Shown here: piece after piece, positions 11,318 to 17,863 of the stretch
Layout of the letters: the number at the start of each line of letters is the position of its first letter
Numbering within the stretch: the stretch's first letter is position 1
DNA from: Escherichia coli
GTDB taxonomy: Bacteria; Pseudomonadota; Gammaproteobacteria; Enterobacterales; Enterobacteriaceae
Assembly (NCBI RefSeq): GCF_017348835.2
Contig: NZ_CP071375.1
Strand: one strand, 5' to 3'
Length of the DNA stretch: 64,000 nucleotides
Program-made: the position numbers and the translations under genes
The notes under the pieces: model-generated
Databases searched by the model: none
What the model saw: the letters and a program-made list of their open reading frames with translations, nothing else
What the model was told of the DNA's origin: nothing

Positions 11318-12436
11318 ATGACTGGAGATAACACCCTCATCCATTCTCACGGCATTAACCGTCGTGATTTCATGAAGCTTTGTGCAGCATTAGCCGCCAC
11401 CATGGGGTTAAGTAGCAAAGCCGCTGCAGAGATGGCCGAATCGGTTACTAACCCGCAGCGTCCGCCAGTTATCTGGATTGGCGCGCAGGAGTGCACCGGT
11501 TGTACGGAATCTCTGCTTCGTGCAACGCATCCAACGGTAGAAAACCTCGTACTGGAGACTATCTCTCTGGAGTATCACGAAGTGCTTTCCGCCGCCTTCG
11601 GTCATCAGGTCGAAGAGAACAAACATAACGCTCTCGAGAAGTACAAAGGGCAGTATGTGTTAGTGGTGGATGGTTCCATCCCATTAAAAGATAACGGTAT
11701 TTATTGCATGGTTGCCGGTGAGCCGATTGTGGATCACATCCGCAAAGCGGCGGAAGGCGCAGCAGCCATTATCGCTATCGGTTCCTGCTCTGCGTGGGGC
11801 GGTGTTGCCGCAGCTGGAGTTAACCCAACTGGCGCAGTCAGCCTGCAAGAAGTTCTGCCAGGCAAAACCGTTATCAACATTCCGGGCTGCCCGCCGAACC
11901 CGCACAACTTCCTCGCGACCGTTGCGCACATCATCACTTACGGCAAACCGCCGAAACTGGATGACAAAAACCGTCCGACCTTCGCCTATGGCCGTCTGAT
12001 TCACGAACACTGCGAACGTCGCCCGCACTTCGATGCTGGTCGTTTTGCCAAAGAGTTCGGTGATGAAGGCCACCGCGAAGGCTGGTGCCTGTACCACCTC
12101 GGCTGTAAAGGGCCAGAAACTTACGGCAACTGCTCAACGCTGCAATTCTGCGATGTTGGCGGTGTGTGGCCGGTGGCCATTGGTCACCCGTGCTATGGCT
12201 GTAACGAAGAAGGTATCGGCTTCCATAAAGGCATCCATCAGCTTGCCAACGTCGAAAATCAGACTCCGCGTTCACAGAAACCGGATGTTAACGCTAAAGA
12301 GGGCGGCAACGTCTCTGCAGGCGCTATTGGTTTGCTCGGCGGTGTGGTTGGGCTGGTTGCCGGTGTCAGCGTGATGGCGGTGCGTGAACTGGGTCGTCAG
12401 CAAAAGAAAGATAACGCTGACTCACGGGGAGAATAA
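11318..12436 (+). CDS. hybO: hydrogenase 2 small subunit (Tat-exported, [Fe-S])
   Basis: 372-aa ORF; twin-arginine signal [11 protein letters not shown]; multiple Cys ligands; recognised as HybO. Confidence 0.9.
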
Positions 12437-12438
12437 CC

Positions 12439-13425
12439 GTGAACAGACGTAATTTTATTAAAGCAGCCTCCTGCGGGGCATTGCTGACGGGCGCGCTGCC
12501 GTCTGTCAGTCATGCGGCTGCTGAAAACCGCCCGCCAATTCCGGGATCGCTGGGGATGTTGTACGACTCGACCTTGTGCGTAGGCTGCCAGGCTTGCGTC
12601 ACCAAGTGTCAGGATATCAACTTCCCTGAACGTAACCCGCAAGGGGAACAGACCTGGTCGAACAACGACAAACTGTCGCCGTATACCAATAACATCATTC
12701 AGGTGTGGACCAGCGGCACAGGGGTCAACAAAGACCAGGAGGAGAACGGCTACGCGTACATTAAGAAACAGTGTATGCACTGCGTCGATCCGAACTGTGT
12801 CTCTGTGTGCCCGGTCTCTGCGCTGAAAAAAGATCCGAAAACCGGCATTGTCCATTACGACAAAGACGTGTGCACCGGTTGCCGTTACTGCATGGTCGCC
12901 TGTCCGTACAACGTGCCGAAGTACGACTACAACAACCCGTTTGGTGCGCTGCATAAGTGCGAGCTGTGCAACCAGAAAGGTGTGGAACGTCTCGATAAAG
13001 GCGGTCTGCCTGGCTGCGTAGAAGTGTGCCCGGCGGGCGCGGTGATTTTTGGTACGCGTGAAGAGCTGATGGCGGAGGCGAAAAAACGTCTGGCGCTGAA
13101 GCCTGGCAGCGAATACCACTATCCGCGTCAGACGCTGAAATCTGGCGACACTTACCTGCATACGGTGCCGAAATATTATCCGCATCTGTACGGCGAGAAA
13201 GAGGGCGGCGGTACTCAGGTTCTGGTACTGACGGGTGTGCCTTATGAAAATCTCGACCTGCCGAAACTGGACGATCTTTCTACCGGTGCGCGTTCCGAAA
13301 ATATTCAACACACCCTGTATAAAGGCATGATGCTACCACTGGCTGTGCTGGCGGGCTTAACCGTGCTGGTTCGTCGCAACACCAAAAACGACCATCACGA
13401 CGGAGGAGACGATCATGAGTCATGA
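12439..13425 (+). CDS. hybA: hydrogenase 2 ferredoxin-type 4Fe-4S electron-transfer subunit
   Basis: 328-aa ORF with GTG start 3 bp after hybO stop; CxxCxxCxxxCP ferredoxin motifs; recognised as HybA. Confidence 0.9.
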
Positions 13426-14593
13426 TCCAAAACCGCTGGGCGGCAAAATCATCAGTAAACCGGTCATGATTTTTGGACCGTTAATCGTCATCTGTATGCT
13501 CCTGATTGTGAAGCGTCTGGTGTTCGGTCTGGGCTCTGTCTCCGACCTGAACGGCGGCTTTCCGTGGGGCGTGTGGATCGCGTTTGACCTGCTGATCGGC
13601 ACCGGCTTTGCCTGTGGCGGCTGGGCGCTGGCGTGGGCGGTATACGTCTTTAACCGTGGGCAATACCATCCGCTGGTGCGTCCGGCGCTGTTGGCGAGTC
13701 TGTTTGGTTACTCACTGGGTGGTTTGTCGATCACTATCGACGTGGGTCGCTACTGGAACCTGCCGTACTTCTACATTCCGGGTCACTTCAACGTGAACTC
13801 GGTACTGTTCGAGACGGCGGTCTGTATGACCATCTACATCGGTGTGATGGCACTGGAGTTTGCTCCGGCACTGTTTGAACGTCTGGGCTGGAAGGTGTCG
13901 CTACAGCGTCTGAACAAGGTGATGTTCTTCATCATTGCACTTGGCGCGCTGCTGCCGACCATGCACCAGTCTTCAATGGGGTCGCTGATGATTTCGGCGG
14001 GCTACAAGGTGCATCCGCTGTGGCAGAGCTATGAAATGTTGCCGCTGTTCTCGCTGCTGACGGCGTTCATCATGGGCTTCTCGATTGTCATCTTTGAAGG
14101 TTCGCTGGTGCAGGCGGGTCTACGTGGCAACGGTCCGGATGAAAAGAGTCTGTTCGTTAAGCTGACCAACACCATCAGTGTGTTGCTGGCGATTTTCATC
14201 GTGCTGCGCTTTGGCGAGCTTATCTATCGCGACAAGCTGTCGTTAGCGTTTGCCGGTGACTTCTACTCCGTGATGTTCTGGATTGAAGTCCTGCTGATGC
14301 TCTTCCCGCTGGTGGTTCTGCGTGTGGCGAAGCTGCGTAATGATTCCCGCATGCTGTTCCTGTCGGCACTGAGCGCGCTGTTAGGTTGTGCAACCTGGCG
14401 TCTGACCTATTCGCTGGTGGCATTCAACCCGGGCGGCGGTTACGCCTACTTCCCGACCTGGGAAGAACTGTTGATTTCTATTGGTTTTGTGGCTATTGAG
14501 ATTTGCGCTTACATCGTACTCATTCGTCTACTGCCGATACTTCCTCCTTTAAAACAAAACGATCATAATCGTCATGAGGCGAGCAAAGCATGA
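13415..14593 (+). CDS. hybB: hydrogenase 2 integral membrane subunit
   Basis: 392-aa hydrophobic ORF overlapping hybA stop by 11 bp; recognised as HybB. Confidence 0.9.
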
Positions 14594-16787: not shown

Positions 16788-17268
16788 AGAGATAGCAGGT
16801 TTCCAGACCTCCCCGAAGGCGCAAGTACAGGCAGCGTTTGAAGAAATTGCCCGGCGTTCGATGCACGATCTCTCTTTTCTGCATCCTTCAATGCCGGTGT
16901 ATGTTTCTGATTTTACGCTGTTCGAAGGTCAGTGGACGGGGTGTGTGATCACCCCGTGGATGCTGAGTGCAGTTATCTTCCCCGGCCCGGATCAACTCTG
17001 GCCGCTGCGCAAAGTGAGTGAAAAAATTGGTCTGCAACTGCCGTATGGCACCATGACCTTTACCGTTGGCGAACTGGACGGTGTTTCGCAATACCTCTCC
17101 TGTTCGCTGATGTCACCGCTTTCGCACAGTATGTCGATTGAAGAGGGCCAACGCCTGACGGATGACTGCGCACGAATGATCCTTTCGCTGCCAGTCACGA
17201 ATCCGGATGTACCACACGCAGGGCGTCGCGCCCTGCTGTTTGGTCGCAGGAGTGGCGAAAATGCATGA
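16780..17268 (+). CDS. hybE: hydrogenase 2-specific chaperone
   Basis: Track ORF 16705..17268; start trimmed to MTEEIAGFQT (162 aa); recognised as HybE. Confidence 0.8.
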   Translation: MTEEIAGFQTSPKAQVQAAFEEIARRSMHDLSFLHPSMPVYVSDFTLFEGQWTGCVITPWMLSAVIFPGPDQLWPLRKVSEKIGLQLPYGTMTFTVGELDGVSQYLSCSLMSPLSHSMSIEEGQRLTDDCARMILSLPVTNPDVPHAGRRALLFGRRSGENA

Positions 17269-17602
17269 GTTGTCGCTTTGCCAGAGTGCCGTTGAAATTA
17301 TCCAACGGCAGGCGGAGCAGCACGATGTTAAGCGCGTCACCGCCGTGTGGCTGGAAATTGGTGCGCTCTCCTGCGTTGAGGAGAGCGCCGTCCGTTTTAG
17401 TTTTGAAATTGTCTGCCACGGAACGGTGGCGCAAGGGTGCGATTTACATATCGTCTATAAACCCGCCCAGGCCTGGTGCTGGGATTGCAGCCAGGTGGTG
17501 GAGATTCATCAGCACGATGCGCAGTGTCCGCTCTGTCATGGCGAGCGGTTGCGTGTCGATACCGGCGATTCGCTGATCGTCAAAAGTATTGAAGTTGAAT
17601 AA
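17261..17602 (+). CDS. hybF: hydrogenase nickel-incorporation protein (HypA paralogue)
   Basis: Track ORF 17207..17602; start trimmed to MHELSLCQSA (113 aa); CxxC...CxxC zinc motif; recognised as HybF. Confidence 0.85.
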   Translation: MHELSLCQSAVEIIQRQAEQHDVKRVTAVWLEIGALSCVEESAVRFSFEIVCHGTVAQGCDLHIVYKPAQAWCWDCSQVVEIHQHDAQCPLCHGERLRVDTGDSLIVKSIEVE

Positions 17603-17614
17603 CCGGAGTTAACA

Positions 17615-17863
17615 ATGTGTATTGGCGTTCCAGGCCAGGTGCTGGCTGTCGGTGAAGATATTCACCAGCTTGCGCAGGTTGAAGTATGTGGTATCAAGCG
17701 CGACGTGAATATCGCCCTGATTTGTGAAGGTAACCCTGCCGATCTGCTGGGCCAGTGGGTGCTGGTACACGTCGGATTTGCCATGAGCATCATCGACGAA
17801 GATGAAGCCAAAGCCACATTAGACGCACTGCGCCAAATGGATTACGACATTACCAGCGCGTGA
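17615..17863 (+). CDS. hybG: hydrogenase maturation factor (HypC paralogue)
   Basis: 82-aa ORF beginning MCIGVPGQV (HypC-type N-terminal Cys); recognised as HybG. Confidence 0.85.

Follow-up and report, generated by a model that had tools for sequence, protein, structure and literature searches.

Overlapping genes and plausible translational coupling in the hydrogenase-2 operon of Escherichia coli

We analysed a stretch of 64,000 nucleotides (nt) from an Escherichia coli chromosome (RefSeq contig NZ_CP071375.1), the whole of which is called the window here. Between positions 11318 and 17863 on the + strand it holds eight consecutive intact open reading frames (ORFs), which are the E. coli genes hybOABCDEFG. 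This region is the chromosomal hydrogenase-2 (Hyd-2) operon, coding for the four subunits of this membrane-bound [NiFe] enzyme (HybO, HybA, HybB and HybC) and for four maturation proteins dedicated to it (HybD, HybE, HybF and HybG). Five of its seven gene junctions overlap. The account that we think best covers the evidence as a whole, and that we hold to be very probably right, is a hydrogenase-2 operon of packed cistrons whose starts are preceded by Shine-Dalgarno (SD) elements, from which we infer coupling of translation between neighbouring genes.

The identity of the operon rests on identity to E. coli genomes, full-length family matches, agreement with annotated gene boundaries, and solved structures. 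A 7-kb query (positions 11000-18000) matches two RefSeq E. coli chromosomes at 100% identity and is present at a coverage of at least 80% in 5,416 of the 5,426 complete genomes of the species. On an identical RefSeq chromosome, annotation by the NCBI Prokaryotic Genome Annotation Pipeline (PGAP) sets the same boundaries as the ORFs read from the window, and names the genes hybO, hybA, hybB, hybC, hybD, hybE, hypA (the hybF of K-12) and hybG. The RefSeq record of K-12 MG1655 has equal gene lengths and equal distances at all seven junctions. Each of the eight products is a full-length match to a specific NCBIfam equivalog, far above the curated cut-off. A sequence-only reading of this DNA, made earlier without database searches, had called the region the hydrogenase-2 operon and proposed comparison with annotated starts as a check; genome identity, annotation, family matches and the K-12 record bear out the first, and in the second the PGAP and K-12 MG1655 boundaries agree with the reading. 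The operon is flanked by yghW upstream and yghU-gss downstream, as in K-12.

All eight genes lie on the + strand. The small-subunit gene hybO (11318-12436; 372 amino acids, aa) has an in-frame stop immediately 5′ of its ATG; its product is matched by NF007779 over residues 1-372 and begins with a twin-arginine translocation (Tat) signal containing RRDFMK. The Fe-S subunit gene hybA (12439-13425; 328 aa; NF008134 equivalog) starts with GTG, and its product has the Tat motif NRRNFIK at the N-terminus. The integral membrane subunit comes from hybB (13415-14593; 392 aa; NF008133 equivalog), and the precursor of the [NiFe] large subunit from hybC (14590-16293; 567 aa), which NF007778 matches over residues 1-567 and to which the PDB chains 6EN9 and 6EHQ correspond. 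The HybC C-terminus is CAVH-VVDADGNEVVSVKVL, of which the last 15 aa are not in the mature protein; the mature chains in PDB have 552 residues. The extension is removed after the CAVH motif, and the mature 552-residue chains have been described (PMC5902676).

The maturation genes follow. The endopeptidase gene hybD (16293-16787; 164 aa) is matched by NF007777 over residues 1-164 and by PDB 1CFZ and 2KML over residues 1-160. The gene for the Hyd-2 assembly chaperone, hybE (16780-17268; 162 aa), is matched over residues 1-162 by both NF007776 and PDB 2KC5. A nickel metallochaperone of the HypA type is encoded by hybF (17261-17602; 113 aa; TIGR00100 and NF009046, both matching from residue 1), and a HypC-family chaperone with N-terminal MC by hybG (17615-17863; 82 aa), matched by NF007721 over residues 1-82 and by PDB 2OT2 (HypC) from residue 1. 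The solved structures are of HybC, HybD and HybE themselves, and only of homologues for HybF and HybG.

The hyb genes have been treated as one operon (PMC5902676). A consensus scan for internal promoters gave three candidate sites in the region, fewer than the 6.0 expected, and sites resembling terminators show no excess there over shuffles. An Rfam scan of 10500-19200 gave no match inside the operon, its sole match being a repetitive extragenic palindromic (REP)-type naRNA4 element 3′ of hybG.

From hybO/hybA to hybF/hybG the distances from stop to next start are +2, -11, -4, -1, -8, -8 and +12. The overlaps of 11, 4, 1, 8 and 8 bp at five of seven junctions that the sequence-only reading had listed are thus exact to the base. 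An SD-like element lies 6-10 nt 5′ of each downstream start, inside the preceding gene in six cases out of seven and, for hybG, in the 12-nt spacer. Between hybO and hybA (12422-12442, +) the stop TAA is followed by CC and the start GTG, with the SD element GGGGAG at 12426-12431 (predicted duplex energy with the 16S rRNA 3′ end, -8.1 kcal/mol). The hybA/hybB junction (13402-13425, +) has GGAGGAG at 13402-13408 (-9.5 kcal/mol) and the overlap ATGAGTCATGA at 13415-13425. At hybB/hybC (14576-14593, +) the element is GAGG at 14576-14579 (-5.6 kcal/mol) and the overlap is ATGA at 14590-14593. The hybC/hybD junction (16282-16295, +) combines a weak AAGG at 16282-16285 (-3.5 kcal/mol) with TAATG, in which the single nucleotide 16293 is shared. 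Both -8 junctions have stronger elements: GGGAGG at 16768-16773 (-10.3 kcal/mol) with the overlap ATGACTGA at 16780-16787 for hybD/hybE (16768-16787, +), and AGGAG at 17248-17252 (-7.0 kcal/mol) with the overlap ATGCATGA at 17261-17268 for hybE/hybF (17248-17268, +). In the MHE of HybF, the third base of the His codon and the first two of the Glu codon together form the hybE stop. Between hybF and hybG (17600-17617, +) TAA is followed by a 12-nt spacer with GGAG (17605-17608; -6.1 kcal/mol) and then ATG. The mean duplex energy over all operon positions is -2.1 kcal/mol, and five of the seven junction elements fall in the top 6% of positions; that of hybD is equalled by 22% of them.

The starts that define these junctions are well supported. 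For hybO, hybA, hybB, hybC and hybG an in-frame stop lies upstream with no start codon in between, and no earlier start is possible; for hybC this stop is at 14575 and the ATG at 14590 is the sole in-frame start after it. We rejected the upstream starts available to hybD, hybE and hybF, which would merely extend the overlaps, and also the downstream starts, which would delete N-terminal residues that are conserved or structurally observed. Later starts would cost 17 residues of HybB, 36 of HybC, 11 of HybD, 27 of HybE or 3 of HybF; the next start in hybA is the TTG at codon 15, and its use would lose the twin-arginine motif NRRNFIK. The MHE of HybF aligns with residues 1-3 of the solved HypA chains 3A43 and 6G81 (Thermococcus and Helicobacter), and we take this N-terminus to be part of the nickel site in HypA proteins. 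HybC residues 2-552 are visible in the electron density of the Hyd-2 crystal structure (PMC5902676). For that work only hybO was plasmid-borne, in a host strain deleted for hybOA (PMC5902676), and the crystallised HybC therefore appears to have been made from the chromosomal gene.

The remaining support for the starts, and the history of the junctions, come from a comparative set of 80 loci in which the eight genes were located by tblastn and the start codon nearest the homologous position was used. The Enterobacterales sampled were Escherichia, Citrobacter, Salmonella, Pseudocitrobacter, Intestinirhabdus, Trabulsiella, Kosakonia, Morganella, Budviciaceae and Edwardsiella. Four loci with disrupted or shifted hyb genes were left out of the junction counts. 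The genes affected are hybB in Morganella psychrotolerans (L040), hybA in L044, both hybC and hybD in L052, and several in L053; frameshifts, pseudogenes or errors of assembly may account for this. A start lies at the homologous position (offset 0) in nearly all Enterobacterales loci, as the hybD ATG does in 55 of the 55 scored, and N-terminal residues are conserved to codon 1 even in taxa whose junction does not overlap. The hybB codons ATG AGT CAT GAT are conserved across Enterobacteriaceae, and most taxa, also those without overlap at the junction, retain a HybE N-terminus of the form M-[S/T/A]-[E/D/N]-E.

Three junctions are invariant in the Enterobacterales: hybB/hybC is -4 in 49 of 49 loci, hybC/hybD is -1 in 55 of 55 and hybE/hybF is -8 in 53 of 53, while third-codon identity of hybC to E. 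coli goes down to 0.52-0.66. The GTG start of hybA and the +2 spacing before it are retained in 46 of 49 loci, with +3 in the other three, and hybA/hybB is -11 in 42 loci, -17 in five and -8 in three. Other junctions drift. Distances at hybD/hybE are -8 (38 loci), -11 (9), +1 or +2 (6) and +31 (3), shifts that arise by lengthening or shortening of the HybD C-terminal tail, and the hybF/hybG spacer varies from +5 to +30 in Enterobacteriaceae and other Enterobacterales. The SD motifs are conserved across genera even where the C-terminal residues they encode differ. Among the genomes compared, the tightly overlapped layout is characteristic of the Enterobacterales version of the operon.

Translational coupling along hyb is plausible because the spacings are in or near the published effective range and an SD-like motif precedes each start. 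Three classes of overlap, -4, -1 and -8, are enriched, and coupling peaks between -4 and +3 nt, falling faster with longer overlap than with longer spacing (PMC12548453). E. coli gene pairs at -8 to +10 nt show a 4.5-fold enrichment for subunits of heteromeric complexes (PMC10666635). Five of the seven hyb junctions (+2, -4, -1, -8, -8) are within this coupling-predictive range, and hybA/hybB (-11) and hybF/hybG (+12) are just beyond it. Spacings of +2 and +12 are within those coupled in some reporter studies, and in other studies coupling is gone by +13 (PMC12548453). Four of five native E. coli -4 pairs, among them hyfHI of hydrogenase 4, were coupled in reporter assays, mostly with assistance from an SD element (PMC6728339).

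On a single hyb mRNA, a ribosome that ends one cistron would probably be in place to begin the next through termination-reinitiation, with the internal SD element as an aid, and de novo initiation at the same elements probably contributes too. Dependence on the upstream gene would be expected to be strongest from hybB to hybC and from hybC to hybD, where overlap is minimal and the SD elements are weakest; at the -8 and -11 junctions, with the strongest elements, dependence should be weaker and reinitiation mixed with de novo initiation. With only seven junctions, this pattern of overlap and SD strength is not statistically meaningful. The expected outcome would be that one transcript yields the subunits together with their chaperones. 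The earlier statement that the overlaps imply translational coupling across the maturation genes stands in part. Coupling may extend along the whole operon. "Implies" is too strong because overlap only predicts coupling, a native overlapping pair is known to be uncoupled and overlaps longer than 4 nt are less efficient; "maturation genes" is too narrow, since the hybA/hybB and hybB/hybC overlaps are both between structural genes and the hybC/hybD overlap links the large subunit to its protease.

Several observations weigh against coupling. Our literature search found no direct test of coupling or polarity in hyb. The native -4 pair bioBF was translated independently in a reporter assay (PMC6728339), and in synthetic constructs overlaps of more than 4 nt couple less efficiently (PMC12548453). 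The homologous operons of Motiliproteus, Betaproteobacteria and Magnetospirillum have spacers of about 10-170 nt at hybB/hybC and hybC/hybD, except for two Magnetospirillum-type loci that scored -41 at hybB/hybC; overlap is therefore not required for a working Hyb-type system. Within the Enterobacterales themselves hybD/hybE moves between -11 and +31. The stop of hybE is built from the invariant HybF codons ATG CAT GAR, and ATGCATGAG is also present in Motiliproteus, where no gene abuts it. The invariance of ATGA, TAATG and ATGCATGA may thus come partly from double coding constraint instead of selection for coupling. The uncoupled bioBF pair, the spacers of the distant operons, the shifting hybD/hybE distance and the hybE stop inside HybF codons would suit overlaps that are neutral by-products of compaction and stop-codon drift, each cistron being initiated independently at its own SD element and the overlap having no regulatory role. 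Such independent initiation could draw on an SD-like element at every downstream start, five of them in the top 6% of operon positions. It does not sit well with three junctions that stay fixed in 49-55 loci despite the divergence at third codon positions, nor with the element of hybD, which is so weak that initiation there would be poor, nor with the four native overlaps out of five that proved coupled when tested (PMC6728339). We regard this explanation as rather unlikely, though it has a real chance of being correct.

Coupling could also work by RNA unfolding: a structure hides the downstream start and the upstream ribosome melts it, without the same ribosome reinitiating. The folds predicted for hybO/hybA and hybD/hybE give this some footing, since the start codon is paired in both minimum-energy structures (z = -2.08 and -1.94), and a predicted 6-bp hairpin at hybO/hybA (TCACGG/CCGTGA, 12422-12442, +), whose loop holds the SD element and the hybO stop and whose 3′ arm holds the GTG, is the predicted consensus structure in 12 taxa and hardly varies in sequence across Enterobacterales. 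After correction for seven tests, however, neither z-score holds up, and in 100-nt windows the folding of all seven junctions is within shuffled expectation (z from -2.1 to +1.2), which is also a point against coupling in general; hybB/hybC and hybC/hybD fold worse than their shuffles (z = +0.74 and +1.23). The predicted hybO/hybA stem has no compensatory pairs, its changes being one-sided or breaking only, and the hybE/hybF alignment yields no consensus structure. With energies not beyond shuffles and no covariation, the predicted RNA structure lends no support to coupling of this type, which we think unlikely. Least probable by far is that some annotated starts are wrong, the true starts lying downstream and the overlaps being artefacts of annotation. 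Downstream in-frame starts do exist, for example the TTG at 17270 in hybF, just 3′ of the hybE stop, and the ATG at codon 18 of hybB. Their use would remove the HybF residues that match the start of solved HypA, HybC residues visible in the crystal, and N-terminal residues conserved to codon 1 across families; the protein-family profiles match from residue 1, and the upstream alternatives for hybD, hybE and hybF only lengthen overlaps. Alternative downstream starts, which the sequence-only reading had named as a possible refutation, are answered in the negative by the conserved N-termini, the HybC crystal structure and the HypA alignment.

Returning to termination-reinitiation, one extension would make the junctions a tuned relay, in which minimal overlaps with weak SD elements force strict dependence on the upstream gene, longer overlaps mix in de novo entry, and the ratios of products are set by the arrangement. 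We consider this speculative and probably incorrect. If it were true, the ratios of subunits to maturation factors would be fixed and co-translational hand-over of pre-HybC and pre-HybO to HybG, HybD and HybE would be favoured; the three invariant junctions, absent from distant Hyb-type operons, would mark a lineage-specific regulatory refinement. The layout matters for gene editing in any case: at every junction except hybF/hybG the ribosome-binding site of the downstream gene lies in the 3′ end of the upstream one, and at five of these junctions the start codon lies there too, a concern for edits such as truncation of the HybC C-terminal extension or deletion of hybD or hybE. The operon is also a small, clean example, within one bacterial order, of frozen overlaps (hybB/hybC, hybC/hybD and hybE/hybF) against drifting junctions (hybD/hybE and hybF/hybG).

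Other features were seen in and around the operon. Two GC-rich hairpins with T-rich tails, terminator-like and on the + strand, lie at 17218-17236 (in the 3′ end of hybE, immediately 5′ of the hybF SD element) and at 17363-17388 (inside hybF); the first is not conserved in 12 genera. The REP-type repeat (naRNA4, RF02564) at 17879-17955 scores 90.5 bits on the - strand and 60.4 on the + strand. It lies between hybG and the convergent yghU, which are 122 nt apart, and is probably the reason that the 7-kb query matches each E. coli genome at a median of 16 places. In the Leminorella locus L033 a histidine-rich ORF of 390 aa between hybF and hybG (8555-9727) resembles the HypB GTPase, as judged by eye from its translation, and shares 10 nt with the start of hybG, an overlap like that of hypB and hypC in E. 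coli; a similar gap of 1.2-1.4 kb separates hybF and hybG in L032 and L034-L037.

Long antisense ORFs run opposite hybC (467 aa, 14638-16041, -) and hybA (304 aa, 12397-13311, -) in the codon-aligned antisense frame. They occur because TTA, CTA and TCA codons are missing over long stretches of hybC and hybA in this lineage: each gene has three such codons in the window, and 4-8 per gene are found in Citrobacter, Salmonella, Trabulsiella and Morganella. We rejected these ORFs as overlapping genes and take them for shadow ORFs; they are not conserved in most of the related genera compared. Compared with strain F2_81, the window has three differences up to about 23.1 kb and then diverges at or after an IS3-family element (23061-24274 in the F2_81 record); the downstream part of the window is therefore from a different strain background than F2_81. 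In that region F2_81 has a variable island that contains hemagglutinin/two-partner-secretion genes, together with a Qat anti-phage system beside a tRNA-Phe gene.

The operon and its gene boundaries are established, as is the general link of short overlaps with translational coupling. In E. coli, 24% of unidirectional gene pairs (707 of 2,987) lie within -8 to +6 nt (PMC10666635); against that rate, the five of seven hyb junctions in the same interval give a binomial P of about 0.01 by our own arithmetic. The hydrogenase operons of K-12 are a closer standard. Overlaps occur at four of five junctions in hya, three of four in hyp, four of eight in hyc and four of nine in hyf, 15 of 26 in all, and at this rate the probability of five or more in seven is about 0.38. 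The frequency of overlap in hyb is therefore unremarkable among E. coli hydrogenase operons, in keeping with the earlier verdict that the overlaps are expected and not novel: the same classes recur in hya, hyc, hyf and hyp and are enriched in the literature.

The nearest relative is the hybOABCDEFG operon of K-12 itself (b2997-b2990), with the same genes, order, lengths, seven junction distances and flanks (yghW and yghU-gss). It differs from the window by strain-level substitutions only, for instance at HybB residue 6, which is K in the window and which we take to be Q in K-12. The K-12 record has the operon on the - strand, the window on the + strand. Upstream of it, yghX (9836-10723, +) is annotated in the record of the identical strain as an intact gene for a 295-aa hydrolase; in K-12 MG1655 it is a pseudogene. 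The operons hya, hyc, hyf and hyp are compact like hyb and use the same overlap classes of -4, -1, -8 and -10/-11, with -8 at hycH/hycI and hyfI/hyfJ, -11 at hyfF/hyfG and -10 at hypB/hypC. They have other subunit sets and another gene order, whereas hyb has HypA and HypC paralogues of its own (hybF and hybG) at its 3′ end.

Gene pairs with termination-reinitiation (Huber et al. 2019, 2023; Brown and Wade 2025 review) resemble the hyb junctions in being co-directional with -4, -1 or -8 spacing, in having the SD element inside the upstream gene and in coding for products of heteromeric complexes; in those pairs dependence of downstream on upstream translation was measured, whereas for the hyb junctions it is predicted. 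The Hyb-type operons of Motiliproteus, Betaproteobacteria and Magnetospirillum share the order hybO-A-B-C-D, with HybD 45-62% identical, but their accessory genes after hybD are rearranged, as in Motiliproteus, where a hybG-like gene stands between hybD and hybE.

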